This document shows, piece after piece, positions 21,465 to 29,492 of a stretch of DNA of 29,492 nt (positions within the stretch are counted from its first letter, which is position 1; every line of letters begins with the position of its first letter). The position numbers and the translations under genes were made by a program. The notes below the pieces were generated by a model, which was not told the DNA's origin, did not search any database, and saw only the letters and a list, made by a program, of their open reading frames with translations. The DNA is from an uncultured archaeon. GTDB taxonomy: Archaea > Asgardarchaeota > Lokiarchaeia > Sigyniarchaeales > SOKP01. The stretch is from assembly GCA_964583985.1 (NCBI GenBank), contig CAZOYD010000046.1:1-29492 (forward strand), read 5' to 3'.

Positions 21465-22124
21465 ATGGAAAATATAAAAAAATACAAAATTCTTGTTCTA
21501 ATCAGTGTAATCATAATCATCCTCGGACCAATTCTTGGTTTTTTTTTTAATAAAATAATTTTGGTCAATCAATCATTTGTTACCTCTGAAACTAGTAACA
21601 ATGATGTTCAAAATGCTACTGCGATTGAATTTACGCTTGTGAAAGATCAAAAAGCAGTAATAGAATTTTCTGCATTTACTGAAAATGTTACTGCTAACTT
21701 AATAATTTTATCAAAAGGAACTTATGATCTGGCGTATGCAGCCTCAACTGCTCCTGGAAGTATCACGGGAGAAAAATACTTTGTTTATTCAGAATTTACA
21801 TTTGGTGATGCGAATTTAGCAGGTCAGGCATTCGCAGATGATATAAGAACTATAACCGCGGAAGGATATTGGTATATTGAATTTGCAGGAGGAGTTGACG
21901 GCGATTATCTGAGATATATACCCGGAGATTACGTTGTTATTGTTTATGGAACAAATTCTGGAGGGATTAACTTGAATATTTATTTTGATCTTGTAATAAA
22001 AATAGATGGTCCTGGAGATATACTCGAATTGCTGTTTATCCTGATTGGAGTTGGTGCGCTAGTTGCTATTATGCTTTTGGCAACTATTGGATATCTCAAA
22101 AAAACAGGGAGGGGTCTTTTATAA
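21465..22124 (+). CDS. Hypothetical membrane protein: N- and C-terminal TM helices flanking a beta-rich extracellular domain
   Basis: Hydrophobic segments at about aa 9-29 and 187-210; AAGGA upstream of the ATG; TAATG overlap with the next gene. Confidence 0.75.
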   Translation: MENIKKYKILVLISVIIIILGPILGFFFNKIILVNQSFVTSETSNNDVQNATAIEFTLVKDQKAVIEFSAFTENVTANLIILSKGTYDLAYAASTAPGSITGEKYFVYSEFTFGDANLAGQAFADDIRTITAEGYWYIEFAGGVDGDYLRYIPGDYVVIVYGTNSGGINLNIYFDLVIKIDGPGDILELLFILIGVGALVAIMLLATIGYLKKTGRGLL

Positions 22125-22597
22125 TGGAAAAAAAACAAGTAAAAGCATCTCTTTTTGATAAATTACCTTTACTAGATAAGAATAGAGCAGCCAAATTTAT
22201 AATCTATGGTATAATTATAGCAATAATATTTGGACTGATGATGATGATTAGTTACTCGATTGCCGTAAATGCTGGTCAATGGGCAGCTCTAGCTAATCAA
22301 GATAATTACTTAAATTACTGGAACGGATTCTATGGATTTAATGACTTCATTGAAAGACAGGAAGAGATTGAAATGATTGCATTATGGATGGCATATCAAG
22401 ATGTCATATTTATGAATATAGCTCGCATTGGGATTAATATAGGTCTAGTGTTTGTACTAATTGGATTTCTATCATTTGCTGTAAACGATAAGATCGATGA
22501 AAATACTCGAAAAACATCAATAATCATTGCTGGATTAGTATTATTTATAATGATCTTTACTACGTTATTCTCATCCATAAGTGTAACCATAAATTAA
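22124..22597 (+). CDS. Hypothetical 3-TM membrane protein
   Basis: Three hydrophobic segments; translationally coupled to the previous ORF; followed by an oligo-T tract. Confidence 0.75.
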   Translation: MEKKQVKASLFDKLPLLDKNRAAKFIIYGIIIAIIFGLMMMISYSIAVNAGQWAALANQDNYLNYWNGFYGFNDFIERQEEIEMIALWMAYQDVIFMNIARIGINIGLVFVLIGFLSFAVNDKIDENTRKTSIIIAGLVLFIMIFTTLFSSISVTIN

Positions 22598-22879: not shown

Positions 22880-22911
22880 TTTTAAAACTATATCATTGTA
22901 TATATTACATA
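22880..22911 (+). promoter_or_regulatory. TATA-like box and candidate operator upstream of GRE gene
   Basis: TTTTAAAA (22880-22887) is followed by TATATCA-N9-TTACATA (22889-22911), a 12/14 match to the palindrome found at the padR promoter. Confidence 0.4.
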
Positions 22912-22929
22912 ATAACTATATAACCATGC

Positions 22930-25416
22930 ATGATTAAAATGAGTGATTCTAAAGGTAAAAAATACGAGATTGCTGAACCTCATGATTTGTCTCCTCGCTC
23001 AAAGTGGATGAGAGATTATTATTTTAAAGGTGATGAGAGAAAATGGAAAAACCAGTACATGGCATTTACCACTGGAACCGATTGGGATATTATTTGGAAT
23101 GAATCTGATTATTACGTCGCTCCAGAAGTTCACTTCTATATCGGAAACAAAGGAAAGGGCGTATTTGAAAGTTCATTACGATCCATGGCGGTTCAAGTGA
23201 AATTGCCCGAAGGCTTTTGGAAATTATCACTACCGGAACGAAGGATGATCTTTTTTGAGGCAGTAATGGTAAATTATGTACCACATGAAATTATCTCCGA
23301 AAATGATCTCATTGCTGGTGGAAGGTTCAACACTCAGTTAAGTAAATGCTTAACAGAAAAAGAAGCAAAAAAGCATTGGAAGAAAAATGTCAACGCGCGC
23401 CAAGAATTCTTTAAATATCATAAATCTGGTTTTGGAAACGTTGGAGCTACTGGCGGTCATATAATTCCTGATCATGAAACCATCATAAAAAAAGGTTTCA
23501 AACATGTTTATGAAAGAGCAACAAGGGAATATGAAAAAATGAGTCAAAAAGAGAAAGATGGTGAGAAAGGAGCAGAACTTCGAGCTATGATAAAAGCAGC
23601 AGAAATCCCCAGAAAATTAGCAAAAAAGTATGCTGAAGAATGTAGAACTCTTAAAGAAACAGCTTCCACACCAGAACGTGTTGAAGAATTAGAACAGATG
23701 GCAAAAAATCTAGAGCTTGTTCCATGGGAACCCGCTAAAACATTTTGGCAAGGTATTCAAGCACTTTGGCTCACTCACATGCTAGTAATGGCTGAAGAGT
23801 CCTACCCTGGACCAGGAATCTCTTTTGGAAGAACTGATCAGCATCTTTGGGATTTATACAAAAAAGATGTGATTGATGAAAAAAATATTTCCAAAGAGTT
23901 TGCTAAAGATATTTTAGGAAGTTTCTGGTTTCATTGTAATACGGCTTATGATGCTCAAATTATGGTTGGAAAACAAGGTATAACATCTGCCTTTGGCCAA
24001 TTAATGACATTAAGTGGATGCGGTCCTAAGGGTGAAGATTTGACAAATGAGTTAACTTATGCTATTTTAGAAGTAATTGACGAATGGAGTCCTATTTTAG
24101 AACCAAAACCAAACATTCGCTTATGTCGTGCGAGTTCAGAAAAGTTACTAAATAAAGTCGTCGATATGGTTTCTCGATCCCAAGGTGCTCCATTTCTCAT
24201 TAATTTTGATGAGCGAAGCATAGCTGGAATGATTAAGGAAGGAATACCTAAGGAAGATGCTTGGAATTATGCTTGTGTTGGTTGTCTAGAGAATACGATG
24301 CAGGGAAACGATCGTTCTGGGACGGTTAATTGCAATCCTAATCTCACAAAAAGTATTGAATTAACCTTATGGAATGGGAAGAACATGCCTAATAACAACG
24401 TGGTCACAAAAAAAGGAGAACAAATTGGACCGAAAACAGGTGATCCTGAATCCTTTAATTCTTGGAATGAATTTTGGAATGCTTGGAAGACACAAATAGA
24501 ATTCCTCATAAAATATACCGTGGATGTATACAACCAAACTGAAAATCTTCGAGCAGAATTTATGCCGACTCCTTATTTATCAAGTATTGTACGTGGATGT
24601 ATTGAGAAAGGGCTTGATATACGAAAAGGAGGTCCTGATTTAAGGTTCATAACCGTAGAAGGAGTAGGATATGCCACTACTGTGGATTCATTACTAGCAA
24701 TAAAGAAACTTGTATATGAAGATAAAAAATACACCATTACGCAAGTTAAAGAAGCCATAATGGATAACTTCGAAAGTGAAGAACATTTTATCATGCAAAC
24801 CGTAATGCAAAATAAACCTCCAAAATATGGAAATGATGAGGATGAGGCTGATGAGATCGCTCGAAAAGTGATGGAACTATGGGCAGGAGAAACTTGGAAA
24901 TATAAAACACAAACTAACTTCCAATTTCGCCCAGGGATGCTATCATGGAATTATTGGGCTGGTGCTGACGCGGAATTTACAATTGCTACTCCAAATGGCA
25001 GAAAAACAGGTACGTACCTTTCAAATGCGATTTGTCCGACCAATGGCGCTGATGTAAAAGGACCTACTGCAGTGACAAATTCTGTTGGAGCTGTATTAGG
25101 AGGTAAAACTGATGATGGAGAATACGTGAATTGCTTACCTAATGGATCAAGTCATACTATTACTTTCAATCCTTCGATAATTAATGATTCAGAGCACCGT
25201 GAAAAATTTAAAGCTTATCTAAGAGGGTATGTAGAAAATGGTGGAACCGCTCTTCAAATTAACATGCTTGATTCTGAAATGCTTAAAGATGCACAAAAAC
25301 ACCCAGAAAATTATACTAATTTACTTGTAAGGGTCACGGGCTACAATGCATACTTCAATTCAATCGGGAAAGAGCTCCAAGATGAAATTATAGCACGCGA
25401 GTCCCATAAATTGTAA
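22930..25416 (+). CDS. Glycyl radical enzyme (PFL-like superfamily, non-PFL, eliminase-type), substrate unknown
   Basis: Gly loop LLVRVTGYNAYF, single-Cys loop VGCLE, SFGRTDQ, PKYGND and ATPNGRK motifs; 828 aa. Confidence 0.93.
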   Translation: MIKMSDSKGKKYEIAEPHDLSPRSKWMRDYYFKGDERKWKNQYMAFTTGTDWDIIWNESDYYVAPEVHFYIGNKGKGVFESSLRSMAVQVKLPEGFWKLSLPERRMIFFEAVMVNYVPHEIISENDLIAGGRFNTQLSKCLTEKEAKKHWKKNVNARQEFFKYHKSGFGNVGATGGHIIPDHETIIKKGFKHVYERATREYEKMSQKEKDGEKGAELRAMIKAAEIPRKLAKKYAEECRTLKETASTPERVEELEQMAKNLELVPWEPAKTFWQGIQALWLTHMLVMAEESYPGPGISFGRTDQHLWDLYKKDVIDEKNISKEFAKDILGSFWFHCNTAYDAQIMVGKQGITSAFGQLMTLSGCGPKGEDLTNELTYAILEVIDEWSPILEPKPNIRLCRASSEKLLNKVVDMVSRSQGAPFLINFDERSIAGMIKEGIPKEDAWNYACVGCLENTMQGNDRSGTVNCNPNLTKSIELTLWNGKNMPNNNVVTKKGEQIGPKTGDPESFNSWNEFWNAWKTQIEFLIKYTVDVYNQTENLRAEFMPTPYLSSIVRGCIEKGLDIRKGGPDLRFITVEGVGYATTVDSLLAIKKLVYEDKKYTITQVKEAIMDNFESEEHFIMQTVMQNKPPKYGNDEDEADEIARKVMELWAGETWKYKTQTNFQFRPGMLSWNYWAGADAEFTIATPNGRKTGTYLSNAICPTNGADVKGPTAVTNSVGAVLGGKTDDGEYVNCLPNGSSHTITFNPSIINDSEHREKFKAYLRGYVENGGTALQINMLDSEMLKDAQKHPENYTNLLVRVTGYNAYFNSIGKELQDEIIARESHKL

Positions 25417-25498
25417 TTTTATTCTTTTTACTTACAGATAACATGCCTTTTGTCTTCTTTTCAATTGATTTATAAATTCTGTAAAATTTTGGGAGATA

Positions 25499-26908
25499 AT
25501 GTTTAATGATAAAGTTCCTTTAAAATCTAAATTAGCTTATGGTGGTCTTGGAGCTGGAATTGGTTTACCCTCTCAAATTGCGTTTTCTGCTATAACTTTT
25601 TTTTATAATACGACATTAGGATTAAATACTGAATTAACTGGAATCGCTTGGCTAATTTTTTCATTCTGGAATGCAATTAACGACCCGTTGTTTGGATTTA
25701 TCGAAGATCGGACTAAATCTGAAAAATATGGAAGGCGAATTCCTTATATTCGCTTTGGTGCTCCTCTTTATGGAGTTGCATTTATTCTTTGTTGGATTCC
25801 TCTTGTGAATATTAATGATCAATTTGCTCTATTTTTCAATTTGATTATAGTTTTATTCGTTTTTGATACATTATTTACGATATTAGGCCTTATTAATTAC
25901 ACTCTTCCTGCTGAAATGGCTCTAACAGCAAAAGAAAGATCAAATTTATTGGTGTATGGTGCAGCTATATCTTCTATTTCGTATGTTATCGCTTTTATTT
26001 TACCTCTTCTGTTTTTAACTGGAAATGAATCTCCAAATGCAGCCATTGAGTTTCTATTTGTAATGATAATTGTGGGAATTATCTGTGCGATAATATTATT
26101 CATAAGTAGCTTCTATTTAAAAGAAAATAAGTATACGCAAATGGAAGAAACTCTCCCAGTACTTGAAGGCTTTATAGAAACTTTTAAAAACTATCCATTT
26201 TTAATTTATGAAGTTTCAAACTTCTCGTTTACTTTCGCTCAAACAATTCTTACTACTGCTATATTTTATTATGTTGAATATGTACTAAGTTTGACTGGGT
26301 TTTTAACCACTTTGCCATTATTATTAGTTTTTGCAATGATCTTCGCCTTTTTTGTAGTTTATAATAAATTGGTAGGAAAATACGGAGTAAAAAAAACCTT
26401 TATTTTAGCATTATTTCTGTCAGGATTAAGCTTTTTTTTGACTTTTTTCATAGGATGGTCATTTAATTTTGCACTAATTGGATTTATTTTTATTGGTATT
26501 GGTTTTTCAGGTTTTATGCTTGTAAATCAAGTAGTTATAGCTGATATTGTGGATTATGATGAAACTAGAACAAAAAAGCGTAGAGAAACAACTTATTCAG
26601 GAATAAACGCATTAATTACTAAACCAGCAATATCACTTGCTAATTGGGTGTTCTTGGTGATAATTAACAACTTTGGATTCGATGCGCAACAATCTATTCA
26701 AAACTTTTCTGCTCAAATGGGTATCATGATTGGATTCTCATTAATTCCGGCCATCTTATTAATATTTAGCTCAATAATCATGTTTTTTTATCCTTTAGAC
26801 GGTCCTAAATGGCTAGCTCAGAAAGCAGAGTTGATTAAAATTCACGAAAATAAAGAATTGGATTATTTGAAGTATTTGGAAGAAAAACGGAAAGAAAAAC
26901 ATGAGTGA
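25499..26908 (+). CDS. MFS transporter, glycoside-pentoside-hexuronide (MelB/GPH) family
   Basis: WNAINDPLFGFIEDRT, YGRRIPY, ERSNL and ADIVDYDE.RT.KRRE motifs; about 12 TM helices. Confidence 0.9.
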   Translation: MFNDKVPLKSKLAYGGLGAGIGLPSQIAFSAITFFYNTTLGLNTELTGIAWLIFSFWNAINDPLFGFIEDRTKSEKYGRRIPYIRFGAPLYGVAFILCWIPLVNINDQFALFFNLIIVLFVFDTLFTILGLINYTLPAEMALTAKERSNLLVYGAAISSISYVIAFILPLLFLTGNESPNAAIEFLFVMIIVGIICAIILFISSFYLKENKYTQMEETLPVLEGFIETFKNYPFLIYEVSNFSFTFAQTILTTAIFYYVEYVLSLTGFLTTLPLLLVFAMIFAFFVVYNKLVGKYGVKKTFILALFLSGLSFFLTFFIGWSFNFALIGFIFIGIGFSGFMLVNQVVIADIVDYDETRTKKRRETTYSGINALITKPAISLANWVFLVIINNFGFDAQQSIQNFSAQMGIMIGFSLIPAILLIFSSIIMFFYPLDGPKWLAQKAELIKIHENKELDYLKYLEEKRKEKHE

Positions 26909-26920
26909 TATTTATTCTTA

Positions 26921-27877
26921 TCAAATTGGCTTGAAATCAGTATTTTTTTCTAGAAATTCTAATTGTTTTAGAAATAAGATATCCCGTTTTCTTAGTATTT
27001 CAATTTCACTTCTACCACCATAATCGTAATGCCCTTTCCCAGTTTTAGCGCCTAATTCTCCCTTTTTAACTTTTTCACTTATTAAAGGAACATTTCCTCC
27101 TTTAGCAGTGATAATATCTTCTACTAGATCAAGACCCGTGAAATCGTGCGCTTGAACCACTCCAATTATAGGTAACCGAATTCCTAAAGTACTTTTAATT
27201 ACGAGGTCGATTTGTTCTGCTGTAGCCAAATTTCTCATCATTAACTCATACATCGCTCCCGAAATCGCATTTTGAATTTTATTTACGATGTAGTTAGGCG
27301 CAAATTTCTTCATTAAAATGGGGACCTTTCCTAATTTTTCATGCAATTGTACTGAAAGCTCGATAATTTCTTGAGATGTCTTTTTACTTGGGGCAATTTC
27401 AACTGTTGGAATGATATGGGGGGGAGAGAACCAATGATGAGCTATAATTCTCTCGGGATGGCTAATTCCCTTTAAAATATTAAAGATGTCCAAGGATGAG
27501 GTATTACTTGCCAAAATTATGTCATCGCGACAGTAATCCGACAATTTTTTAAATAATTCAAGCTTTAAATTTGGTACTTCTTTAATGGCTTCTAACGTTA
27601 GATCAGCATTTTCAGCATTCTCCTTGAGATTTGTGGAGGGATGAATTCTGTTAAGAATATTTACGATTTCAGTTGGTTTTACCCTATTAAATTCCGCTAA
27701 CGTGTTCAAATTGTTATCAATGAGATTCATAGCGCGATCCAGGATCTTCTTATTGATATCAACCAAGAAAACTTCAAATCCTCCTTGAGCATATACCTGA
27801 GCAATCGAATGGCCCATGTTTCCTGCTCCAATTATTAAAACGTTTTGAATATCACTTAATTTCATTTTTAATTTCAC
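26921..27877 (-). CDS. 3-hydroxyacyl-CoA dehydrogenase family protein
   Basis: IIGAGNMGHSIA, EAIKE..LK, ILASNTSS, HWFSPPH..VEI, DFTGLD and GELGAKTGKG motifs. Confidence 0.88.
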   Translation of the reverse strand: MKLKMKLSDIQNVLIIGAGNMGHSIAQVYAQGGFEVFLVDINKKILDRAMNLIDNNLNTLAEFNRVKPTEIVNILNRIHPSTNLKENAENADLTLEAIKEVPNLKLELFKKLSDYCRDDIILASNTSSLDIFNILKGISHPERIIAHHWFSPPHIIPTVEIAPSKKTSQEIIELSVQLHEKLGKVPILMKKFAPNYIVNKIQNAISGAMYELMMRNLATAEQIDLVIKSTLGIRLPIIGVVQAHDFTGLDLVEDIITAKGGNVPLISEKVKKGELGAKTGKGHYDYGGRSEIEILRKRDILFLKQLEFLEKNTDFKPI

Positions 27878-27946
27878 TTTGAAAAATAATTATTAATATT
27901 AGATTTGAGTCCATTATTTAATTATATTTCATCTCACAAACTTCTT

Positions 27947-28023
27947 TCACATTATGTGACCAAAACCGACACATTTAAATAGTATAGTTGCATTTAATAT
28001 TATATGACTAAAATGATCATATA
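27947..28023. promoter_or_regulatory. Two palindromic operator-like sites flanking a TATA box in the divergent dehydrogenase/padR promoter
   Basis: TATGTGA-N9-ACACATT (27953-27975) and perfect TATATGA-N9-TCATATA (28001-28023); TTTAAATA at 27974-27981. Confidence 0.6.
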
Positions 28024-28029
28024 TAAAAA

Positions 28030-28821
28030 ATGGTGACATATAAAATGAATGAAAAAGAATTAAATGAAAAAAAAGAAGATTTTGAAAATGAAGATTGGCA
28101 CTCATGGGAACCTCATGTTCCTCCATATTCTTTTCATCATCCACCAAGGGGTAAATATTATCCAAGAGACAGAACATACAGACATCATAGACCTCATGTT
28201 CCATTCGATCCTTTAATTCCACCACCGCGTTTTAGAAAACATTTCAGACCACCGAGAATCCCATTTACCAATGAAGACTTTCAAAATATCAAGCATTTTA
28301 TGATCCTCAACATTCTTAATGAAAGTGAATCAGGAATTACAGGATATCAGCTACAAAAACATTATAAACTTCCAAGAGGTACACTAATTCACGTGCTTGA
28401 TAAACTTGAAAAATTAAATTATCTCGATACTCATGAAGAAACTATCGAAGGTCGCGCTCAGAAATATTATCAACTTTCAGATTTGGGAAAAAAATACCTT
28501 GAAGATCTCAAGGAAAATTGGGCTTCGCGGTTCATGATGTTATCAGAAATGGCTCCTCCTGAAAAATATGGGAATCCATTCCATCGAGAAAATCTACGTT
28601 CAAAAATGATGATGGACATCGGTGATCTAAGCGAGAAGGAAGAAGCAATAGATTACTTCAGGGGCATGAGATCTCGTCTAACTAGCTATTTAAGAAGAGT
28701 GAAAAGAAAAGAAATACAACTTAACGAAATAAAAGCCATTTTCGATGAGCTTATTAAAACTATAGAAAACTTGGATGAATTTAATCAAGACAAAATTAAA
28801 GAGCTAATCGAGAAGTTATAA
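28030..28821 (+). CDS. PadR-family winged-helix transcriptional regulator with His/Pro/Arg-rich N-terminal extension
   Basis: MILNIL...GITGYQL...GTLIHVLDKLEKLNYL...GRAQKYYQLSDLGKKYL motif; helical C-terminus. Confidence 0.85.
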   Translation: MVTYKMNEKELNEKKEDFENEDWHSWEPHVPPYSFHHPPRGKYYPRDRTYRHHRPHVPFDPLIPPPRFRKHFRPPRIPFTNEDFQNIKHFMILNILNESESGITGYQLQKHYKLPRGTLIHVLDKLEKLNYLDTHEETIEGRAQKYYQLSDLGKKYLEDLKENWASRFMMLSEMAPPEKYGNPFHRENLRSKMMMDIGDLSEKEEAIDYFRGMRSRLTSYLRRVKRKEIQLNEIKAIFDELIKTIENLDEFNQDKIKELIEKL

Positions 28822-28933
28822 AATAATTAAAATTTTTTTTTCTAATTTTTGAGCATTTCACATGTATTAAATCCAAAATTTTTTTTATAATTTAAATTTC
28901 TAAATTATAGGTGTAGCTTATTTGGCTGATGTA

Positions 28934-29492
28934 ATGAAAGGATTTATTTTTGAGATTCAAAAAATGAGTACCGAAGACGGTCCTGGAATACGTACTACTG
29001 TCTTTTTCAAGCAATGTCCACTGAAATGTATTTGGTGCCATAATCCGGAATCAATTTTAAAGAAAAAGCAATTAGAATGGTTCAAACATAAATGTATTGG
29101 GTGCAATACTTGCATTAAAACTTGTGAACTGGCAGCACTAAAATTTGAAGAAGATGGTCTTTACATTGATAGAAAACTCTGTACTAGTTGTGGAAAATGT
29201 TCAGATGAATGTCCGTCAACAGCACTCCACATGTTTGGCGAATATTGGTCTTTAGATGATCTCTATCACGAGATTCAAAAAGATAAAGTATATTACGAGC
29301 AATCTAAAGGAGGCATTACAGTATCGGGTGGAGAACCCACCATCCAATCTGATTTCATTTTAGAATTTTTAAAGATGTGCAAGGATAATGGTATTTCTAC
29401 AGCTTTAGATACGTGTGGCTATGCTTCCAAAAATATATATGAAAAAATTTTGCCATACGTAGATCTTGTTCTTCTTGATATCAAGGAAATCG
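28934..29492 (+). CDS. Glycyl-radical activating enzyme (radical SAM) with 2x[4Fe-4S] insert; runs off the window end, not in ORF track
   Basis: Manual translation gives MKGFIFEIQKMSTEDGPGIRTTVFFKQCPLKCIWCHNPES...CIGCNTCIKTC...CTSCGKCSDECP...GGITVSGGEP...DTCGY. An alternative in-frame TTG start at 28922 follows AGGTG. Confidence 0.93.
   Translation, partial: MKGFIFEIQKMSTEDGPGIRTTVFFKQCPLKCIWCHNPESILKKKQLEWFKHKCIGCNTCIKTCELAALKFEEDGLYIDRKLCTSCGKCSDECPSTALHMFGEYWSLDDLYHEIQKDKVYYEQSKGGITVSGGEPTIQSDFILEFLKMCKDNGISTALDTCGYASKNIYEKILPYVDLVLLDIKEI

Follow-up and report, generated by a model that had tools for sequence, protein, structure and literature searches.

An uncharacterised Asgard glycyl radical enzyme of the eliminase type with a conserved activase and a predicted split-barrel partner

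Glycyl radical enzymes (GREs) catalyse anaerobic reactions that rank among the most difficult, and with every clade assigned so far a new pathway has come to light. The locus described here raises the question of which reaction its GRE catalyses, and with which partners. The window, the 29,492 nucleotides of DNA that were analysed, is the whole of contig C46 (CAZOYD010000046.1). The original prediction had identified five genes in it (a GRE, a GPH transporter, a dehydrogenase, a PadR regulator and an activase), had joined them into one complete catabolic system and had placed them in a probable Asgard archaeon. All five genes were found where it had placed them, with the domains it had named. 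The Asgard origin was supported, as all close GRE homologues came from Asgard metagenome-assembled genomes (MAGs); Ras-like GTPase, Cdc6 and GIFT-domain genes in the window point the same way. The features considered are:

21465 to 22597, forward strand: two small proteins without an assigned family (219 and 157 aa), encoded ahead of the GRE gene; no Pfam hit
22930 to 25416, forward strand: GRE catalytic subunit, 828 aa; Pfam PFL-like and Gly_radical
25499 to 26908, forward strand: MFS_2/GPH-family transporter; Pfam MFS_2, 211 bits
26921 to 27877, reverse strand: 3-hydroxyacyl-CoA-dehydrogenase-family NAD enzyme; 3HCDH_N, 179 bits
28030 to 28821, forward strand: PadR-family regulator, N-terminally extended by a His/Pro/Arg-rich stretch; PadR, 29.9 bits (cut-off 27)
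28922 to 29491, forward strand: GRE-activating radical SAM enzyme, first 190 aa, cut off where the contig ends; TIGR02494

The product of the gene at 22930-25416 contained both parts that define the superfamily, a PFL-like barrel (PF02901, 411 bits) and a C-terminal glycine radical domain (PF01228, 83.5 bits), and its structure model (pLDDT 88.6) matched solved GREs with Z scores of 27 to 36. An alignment of 45 sequences of the clade showed that Gly804 of the RVxG loop, here RVTG(804)YN, was invariant, as were His177 and Glu454; Cys452 was nearly so (at least 90%). These last three residues align with His164, Glu435 and Cys433 of glycerol dehydratase (GDH, 1r8w; His177 with His164, Cys452 with Cys433, Glu454 with Glu435). 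A single Cys followed by Glu (GCxE) together with a conserved His is the pattern of eliminase-type GREs. The original prediction had assigned the enzyme to this type, and the assignment stands: the single Cys, the GCxE loop and an activase with a ferredoxin insert were all present, and the motifs it had listed (GCLE, RVTGYN, EESYPGPGISFGR, GITSAFGQ, RSGTVNCNPN and GMLSWNYW) were all found in the translation. Residues 1 to ~170 were matched by neither Pfam nor NCBIfam models. An extra N-terminal domain was considered and rejected, since from residue 16 onward the model can be superposed on known GREs; this region is divergent in sequence, and its fold is not new.

The enzyme was placed relative to characterised GREs using scores against curated models and comparisons with PDB structures. 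None of the curated family cut-offs was reached by its NCBIfam profile scores. Against TIGR01774 (PFL2/glycerol dehydratase family) it scored 420.5 bits, below the cut-off of 678.2, and the equivalog models gave 398 bits for HypD (cut-off 1100), 342 for CutC (1050), and 380/1000, 354/1000, 295/1100 and 199/1150 for HpsG/HpfG and the indoleacetate and hydroxyphenylacetate decarboxylases. With equivalog scores at 8-37% of their cut-offs, the GRE lies outside the characterised isofunctional families, as had been proposed. The best-matching solved structures shared ~27% identity with it, and their Z scores were tied at 35-36.5 (dehydratases, CutC and HypD); fumarate-adding enzymes followed at 29-31 and PFL at 27.

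The top matches by both sequence and structure were the glycerol dehydratase of C. butyricum (1r8w) and 1,2-propanediol dehydratase (5i2g, 9rco), the best of them reaching 318 bits and a Z score of 36.5, with an rmsd of 2.7 over 707 residues and 27% identity. Similarly to these dehydratases, the GRE combines a ten-stranded barrel, the His/Cys/Glu trio and a ferredoxin-insert activase. Unlike them, it has a conserved split-barrel partner and is found without a microcompartment or a dha/pdu context. The substrate pocket also differed: in the 1r8w alignment, the residues that we take to bind the diol in GDH (H281, S282, Y339, D447 and Y640, GDH numbering) correspond to P293, G294, G356, V466 and L671. 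All five positions checked were replaced, in agreement with the original view that the pocket is unlike those of known eliminases. HypD (trans-4-hydroxy-L-proline dehydratase, 6vxc) and CutC (choline TMA-lyase, 5fau) share the GCxE loop and the conserved His with the GRE (Z 35.8-35.9, 27-28% identity). Tyr450 of HypD aligns with Asn469, and the GRE, unlike these two enzymes, has no P5C reductase or cut-cluster context. The literature searched held no characterisation of this clade, and the names of distant cluster representatives were uninformative.

The activase scored 240 bits against TIGR02494 (cut-off 174), and the fragment carries the CxxxCxxC region and a 2x[4Fe-4S] ferredoxin insert. 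Its N-terminus scored highest against the HypD activase model (246 bits). The protein breaks off at residue 190 of ~320 at the contig end, and no contig of the assembly yielded its C-terminal half. At locus L003, the activase encoded directly downstream of the GRE is 71% identical to that of the window. The description of the system as complete did not hold, because the activase is truncated at the end of the contig and a third conserved component, the split-barrel protein, is encoded on another contig.

The GRE clade was present in 192 of 399 Asgard genomes, complete genomes among them, and its members fell into two identity tiers (64-81% and 43-52%). The clade is monophyletic: in a tree of 88 rows, it was grouped with a few bacterial derivatives on one side of a branch of length 0.50 with an SH-like support of 100, and the 53 nearest representatives of 50% clusters, like the five other GREs of the same genome, all fell outside it.

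Gene neighbourhoods were surveyed at 60 sampled loci of the clade. The activase was found near the GRE in 46 of them and the split-barrel protein in 47; they alone were conserved in every lineage group, usually in the order GRE-activase-partner and mostly co-directional. Orthologues of the transporter were linked to the GRE at none of the 60 loci. The dehydrogenase was linked at one (L047, beside the GRE, 75% identity) and PadR at one, by a single homologue with 41% identity. The original prediction had itself named missing linkage in other genomes as refuting one conserved catabolic system of five genes, and this is what the survey returned. The transporter, dehydrogenase and PadR genes are insertions between GRE and activase of a kind confined to this species and its closest relatives. 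Locally they may feed or drain the pathway, while standing outside the conserved machine.

The import of a substrate is nevertheless possible, since non-orthologous MFS_2 genes were found near the GRE in several other lineages (L047, L054, L055, L066 and L065/L067), from adjacent to six genes away; in L054 the MFS_2 gene lies inside the GRE operon, alongside an amidohydrolase. Paralogues at three loci were 25-27% identical to the transporter of the window, which scored 154 bits against TIGR00792, under the cut-off of 231. Because unrelated MFS_2 genes recur near the GRE, calling this transporter mere cargo may understate its role. A link to beta-oxidation, prompted by thiolase, crotonase, 3HCDH and NMO genes near the GRE in genus g1, was rejected: crotonase adjacency (6 of 60 loci) was about what 14 paralogues per genome lead one to expect, and the rest reflected synteny within a single genus.

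The second conserved component is a protein of ~290 aa with a tandem split beta-barrel similar to PNPOx and FMN-binding proteins. In this genome it occurs as a single copy on contig C109 (2700-3584), away from the window and from the activase. It was found in 177 of the 399 Asgard genomes, with counts per family almost equal to those of the GRE: three and three in family f13, in the same genomes, four and four in f20, and five and five in f21. Among high-quality genomes, GRE and partner were each present in 51 of 89. The structure model (pLDDT 89.7) showed two split barrels. The top PDB matches were HupZ, FMN-binding proteins and F420 reductases, each spanning one half of the protein; HupZ (7kq2), the D. 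vulgaris FMN-binding protein (3a20), Swol_0183 (3in6) and MSMEG_3380 (3f7e) superposed on each half (Foldseek E about 5e-6, probability 1.0, target TM 0.6-0.75). Unlike these proteins, the partner has two barrels fused in one chain. Its PF01243 scores (16.8-21.7 bits) were under the gathering cut-off of 28.1. Only three columns of its alignment were invariant (P41, P200 and G248), and none of the invariant residues was one binding flavin or another cofactor. A catalytic cofactor role of the partner is therefore not supported.

Structure prediction of a complex between GRE residues 1-700 and the partner returned a score of 0.84, compared with 0.01 for the best of three controls. Of 80 solved complexes, 58 attained the mark applied to this score, as did 2 of 110 mismatched pairs; both counts are only approximate here, because the alignments used in the complex prediction were our own. 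Contacts agreed between runs to at least 84%, with a partner pLDDT of at least 85. The predicted interface involves residues 30-123 and 342-346 of the GRE and residues 115-122, 170-173, 239-244 and 271-294 of the partner, and the most conserved motif of the partner, YNxxPPxxG, lies within it. We know of no solved complex of a GRE with a split-barrel protein that the model could have memorised. The partner is thus predicted to be an accessory subunit bound to the clade-specific N-terminal region of the GRE.

Heteromeric GREs offer a precedent for a catalytic subunit that carries accessory proteins from its own operon; they include benzylsuccinate synthase (alpha-beta-gamma), (1-methylalkyl)succinate synthase and 4-hydroxyphenylacetate decarboxylase (HpdB/HpdC), and structures of such enzymes (4pkf, 9o8u and 2y8n) were among the structural matches of the GRE. 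The accessory subunits of known heteromeric GREs are small proteins, mostly with Fe-S clusters, whereas the subunit predicted here is a tandem split barrel of 290 aa lacking a Cys cluster and placed on the N-terminal region. The catalytic subunit is also nearer to eliminases than to heteromeric GREs of the benzylsuccinate synthase type. The GRE is probably heteromeric.

Other identities of the enzyme were weighed against these data. Homologues are annotated as pyruvate formate lyase in their source records, the complete genome G135 carries the clade, and 2-oxoacid-formate lyases have been invoked in the cultured Asgard archaeon MK-D1 (Imachi et al. 2020, PMC7015854). A pyruvate or 2-oxoacid formate-lyase is nevertheless very improbable, as the VGCLE loop has Gly before Cys452, leaving no Cys-Cys pair, TIGR01255 gave 92 bits where 994 are required, and PFL was the farthest structural match among GREs (Z 27) bar the ribonucleotide reductases. 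PFL activases have no ferredoxin insert, whereas the activase described here does. We give no more credit to an alkyl- or benzyl-succinate synthase, although single-Cys Asgard GREs were named Ass/Bss in a study of Hermodarchaeota (Zhang et al. 2021, PMC8163825), close homologues come from MAGs bearing that name, and genes of the beta-oxidation type lie nearby in genus g1. Scores for the BssA/AssA/MasD type were 173-202 bits against 318 for GDH, with Z scores of 29-31 against 35-36.5; the His and the Glu of GCxE typical of eliminases are invariant, crotonase adjacency was near the chance rate, and no small-subunit gene was conserved beside the GRE among open reading frames of at least 70 aa at the 60 loci. 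A step in the biosynthesis of the cofactors tetrahydromethanopterin (H4MPT) or F420 was suggested by 15 of the 60 loci, where the trio lies within a cluster of MptD, RFAP-synthase-like, DUF447, pterin-binding and CofG/CofH genes. This role was rejected as the remotest of all, because the linkage was confined to six genera of one family, the cluster of the present genome is intact on contig C29 without a GRE, and MptD occurs without any GRE in three genus g6 genomes that are 98-100% complete; two further genomes with MptD have paralogous GREs only.

Two further readings concern how the genes work together. That the five genes of the window form one catabolic system, in which a sugar, polyol or sugar acid enters through the GPH transporter and is dehydrated by the GRE, the dehydrogenase then acting on the product under PadR control, is favoured by the gap of only 82 nt between GRE and transporter on the same strand and by the recurrence of non-orthologous MFS_2 genes described above. 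We consider it unlikely in view of the linkage counts, of the five 3HCDH and about six MFS_2 paralogues in the same genome, and of the gap between GRE and activase, which within the same genus holds thiolase, crotonase, Mo-oxidoreductase, NMO or nothing depending on the species. The dehydrogenase gene is convergent with that of the transporter, and PadR is divergent from the dehydrogenase. A degenerate palindrome was found both between the PadR and dehydrogenase genes and upstream of the GRE, with four matches against 0.55 expected, but this pattern was adjusted to the data afterwards, is AT-rich in a genome of 30% GC, and two of its matches are one site read on both strands; a PadR site shared with the GRE promoter is a weak lead only. 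The partner could instead be a dedicated flavin electron donor to the activase, replacing flavodoxin, rather than a subunit. It is usually encoded directly after the activase, and its fold matches small FMN-binding electron-transfer proteins. This role appears more doubtful still, given the predicted docking on the N-terminal region of the GRE, the lack of invariant flavin-binding residues, and the two further activases of the same genome, neither of which adjoins a split-barrel protein, next to a single partner copy. In addition, a degenerate bacterial relative (P0254), which lacks the Gly loop and has no activase nearby, retains a distant homologue of the partner immediately downstream. The donor and subunit roles are not mutually exclusive.

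We therefore favour, with reasonable though not strong confidence, an uncharacterised Asgard GRE acting as a 1,2-eliminase, by analogy, within a three-gene system that comprises the activase and a docked split-barrel subunit, the neighbours in the window being insertions. From the three retained catalytic residues we infer a putative 1,2-elimination; since the pocket is otherwise unlike that of any characterised eliminase, the substrate is a new one, or at any rate one yet to be assigned. In a scheme modelled on glycerol dehydratase, HypD and CutC, the activase would generate a radical on Gly804, which would move to Cys452. The resulting thiyl radical would take a hydrogen from the carbinol carbon of the substrate, Glu454 would act as a general base deprotonating its hydroxyl, and His177 would act as a general acid protonating the leaving group on the adjacent carbon, leading to dehydration or C-X cleavage. 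The partner would dock through its YNxxPPxxG motif and C-terminal tail.

A bolder reading, which we put forward tentatively and hold to be somewhat doubtful, is a new class of heteromeric GRE, ancestral to Asgard archaea or widespread among them, in which the split-barrel subunit, possibly with flavin, F420 or haem, couples the elimination of a novel substrate to redox or gating, and for which the published labels are wrong. If true, such a subunit would represent a new way to build a GRE. About one in two sampled Asgard genomes carries the clade, and the labels published so far (2-oxoacid formate-lyase, Ass/Bss) do not fit its active site; such labels distort models of Asgard syntrophy and hydrocarbon use.

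Two minor observations concern the GRE gene and its surroundings. The orthologue in genome G183 has an in-frame TGA at a conserved Trp codon; recoding was considered and rejected, an error or a pseudogene appearing more likely. Orthologues of both small proteins encoded upstream of the GRE (39-62% identity) were found upstream of the GRE at five loci, all in the same genus, g1.

All five genes of the original prediction, together with every motif it quoted, were found in the window, which is the entire contig C46 (29,492 bases) of a 3.8 Mb Asgard genome in 138 contigs (G000). They are arranged as follows.

22930-25416, forward strand: glycyl radical enzyme (GRE), 828 aa
82 nt downstream of the GRE: MFS_2/GPH transporter
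Convergent: 3HCDH-family dehydrogenase
Divergent: PadR regulator
Running past the contig end: ferredoxin-insert GRE activase, residues 1-190 present

The remainder of the activase was not found in the assembly. The PadR gene encodes a His/Pro/Arg-rich N-terminal extension of about 100 residues (28030-28340) before the winged-helix domain; translation may start at the ATG at 28030 or at that at 28046. AT-rich inverted repeats, TATRTSA-N9-TYAYATA, were present in the PadR/dehydrogenase intergenic region (27947-28042), and one lies upstream of the GRE (22889-22911); 4 matches were counted against 0.55 expected, with a pattern fitted to the same data.

The GRE is outside every characterised family. 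Scanning with NCBIfam models showed that it reached no cut-off: it scored 420 bits against the broad TIGR01774 (cut-off 678), 398 against HypD (1100), 380 against HpsG (1000), 342 against CutC (1050) and 92 against PFL (994). The nearest solved relatives by score were glycerol dehydratase (GDH; 318 bits) and HypD (304 bits). The AlphaFold model (pLDDT 88.6) fitted glycerol and propanediol dehydratases, A. fulgidus PFL2, HypD and CutC equally (Z 35-36.5, 24-28% identity). Fumarate-adding enzymes fitted less well (Z 29-31), PFL was the worst of the GRE structures (Z 27) and ribonucleotide reductases were lower still. In a HMMER alignment to the C. butyricum GDH structure 1r8w, the catalytic residues His164, Cys433 and Glu435 corresponded to His177, Cys452 and Glu454, positions that are invariant or nearly so across 45 clade members, whereas the diol-binding residues H281, S282, Y339, D447 and Y640 were replaced by Pro293, Gly294, Gly356, Val466 and Leu671. 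This indicated that the eliminase machinery is retained and that the substrate pocket is different. The novelty originally claimed for this enzyme was upheld and sharpened.

Close homologues formed more than 120 clusters (72-99% identity) in a set of 5.8 billion proteins, exclusively from Asgard MAGs. Clade members were matched in 192 of 399 Asgard species genomes. The matches fall into two tiers, one at 64-81% identity from the window's order and two further families, the other at 43-52% from different classes. A comparison with 1.84 billion cluster representatives gave full-length matches, N-terminal 170 residues included, to five clusters only; a few bacterial relatives have lost the Gly loop, and all remaining matches covered only residues ~170-828 at 30-36% identity. 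In a FastTree phylogeny of 88 rows, a branch of length 0.50 (SH-like support 100) separated the clade and its Gly-less bacterial derivatives from all 53 nearest representatives and all five paralogues from the same genome. One orthologue (L057:8731-8865, G183:C41) carries an in-frame TGA at position 39, where all others conserve a Trp codon; the candidate explanations are an error, a pseudogene or local recoding.

Neighbourhood conservation was analysed at 60 clade-member loci drawn from 18 lineage groups, each in a stretch of up to 20 kb, using the window's proteins as queries and all-against-all clustering. No locus had an orthologue of the transporter (0/60). The dehydrogenase had an orthologue at one locus, L047 from the window's genus, and a PadR homologue likewise occurred once. 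These counts, the outcome that the original prediction itself named as refuting, do not support the proposal that GRE, transporter, dehydrogenase, PadR and activase form a conserved, complete catabolic system. Only two gene families were kept across all lineage groups: the activase (46/60) and a ~290-aa protein without Pfam assignment (47/60), referred to here as the partner. The commonest order was GRE, activase, partner, in one direction throughout. Some species of the window's genus have this compact operon and others carry varied genes between GRE and activase: transporter, dehydrogenase and PadR in the window; thiolase, crotonase and a long 3HCDH, or a Mo-oxidoreductase and an NMO-like gene, in relatives. 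This gap, empty in some loci, is an apparent insertion hot spot within the genus (L041, L045, L047 and the window vs L048-L051). Five or six other arrangements have a non-orthologous MFS_2 gene close to the GRE, in one case within the operon and accompanied by an amidohydrolase; informally compared, and given about six MFS_2 genes per genome, this proximity looks commoner than chance.

The first three neighbourhoods suggested a role in H4MPT/F420 cofactor biosynthesis, the trio lying inside such a gene cluster, which flanks it in six other genera. This linkage is synteny within six genera of one family; the cluster is intact without the GRE in the window's own genome (G000:C29:29706-37916; RibD_C, CofG, CofH, ABM, a pterin-binding DUF4346 protein, DUF1464, DUF447, MptD and an RFAP-synthase-like protein), and MptD is retained in near-complete genomes having no GRE at all, so this reading was rejected. 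A PFL or 2-oxoacid formate-lyase (Imachi 2020, PMC7015854) was rejected on the missing Cys-Cys pair and on all scores. An Ass/Bss assignment was made for five sequences, which may or may not include this clade (Zhang 2021, PMC8163825); for this enzyme it was rejected on relative similarity and on the eliminase-type His and Glu.

The partner gene of the window's genome lies on another contig (C109:2700-3584); the next genes, for a sulfatase and an NMO-like protein, are shared with several relatives in this position. Upstream, in the expected place of the activase, is a gene for a 719-aa secreted protein (C109:394-2550, L101) that contains numerous beta-helix repeats of NNNTLSGN type and ends in a membrane anchor. 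Partner homologues formed more than 120 clusters (69-97% identity), every one named 'hypothetical', and are as conserved as the GRE. A HMM search detected the partner in 177 of 399 genomes, with per-family counts following those of the GRE almost exactly; among 89 high-quality genomes, 51 had the GRE and 51 the partner. The modelled structure (pLDDT 89.7) has two split beta-barrels in tandem, and HupZ, small FMN-binding proteins and F420 reductases match either half; Pfam PNPOx_N scored only 17-22 bits. Only three columns were invariant in a 39-sequence alignment, and the strongest motif, YNxxPPxxG, is near the C-terminus.

Structure prediction with GRE residues 1-700 and the partner gave a complex score of 0.84, against 0.01 for the best of three controls. 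Of 80 solved complexes, 58 reach the mark used for this score, as do 2 of 110 mismatched pairs; these rates are approximate here, our own alignments having been used. Contacts agreed between runs by at least 84%, with partner pLDDT of at least 85. The predicted interface, which includes the invariant GRE residue Arg37, joins GRE 30-123, a clade-specific N-terminal region in which the invariant Asn41 also lies, to partner residues 115-122, 170-173, 239-244 and 271-294, which include the conserved motif and C-terminal tail. A further predicted contact is at GRE 342-346, beside a flexible loop leading to the pocket strand; the interface does not occupy the cavity opened by removal of the Gly domain. 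The partner is predicted to bind the GRE, consistent with the co-occurrence data and with the finding that a Gly-less bacterial relative has a partner homologue downstream of it and no activase close by. The window's enzyme is an uncharacterised GRE, widespread in Asgard archaea, with a conserved tandem split-barrel protein as its predicted binding partner, an arrangement for which no description was found in the literature.

The genome encodes six GREs, a large complement for an archaeon. None has a PFL-type Cys-Cys pair, three have a GCxE thiyl loop, and the window's GRE is the farthest from the Pfam model. The other five are on contigs C40, C31, C15, C103 and C11 (L005-L009), with a GCVE thiyl loop in three; at least two further activases are on C15 and C11. 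The Gly-less relative P0254 (L104:8001-11197 including the gene downstream), from a high-GC bacterium, has GCPGN as thiyl loop, and its stop codon is overlapped by the distant partner homologue. Two Firmicute relatives (P0248, L102:6753-9182; P0249, L103:8001-10358; 34-37% identity) are without the catalytic Cys, Glu and Gly loop, yet an activase-like radical SAM gene and an Fe-ADH still lie downstream of each. Possible readings are that these relatives are pseudo-GREs or that the adjoining radical SAM enzyme acts on a different target.
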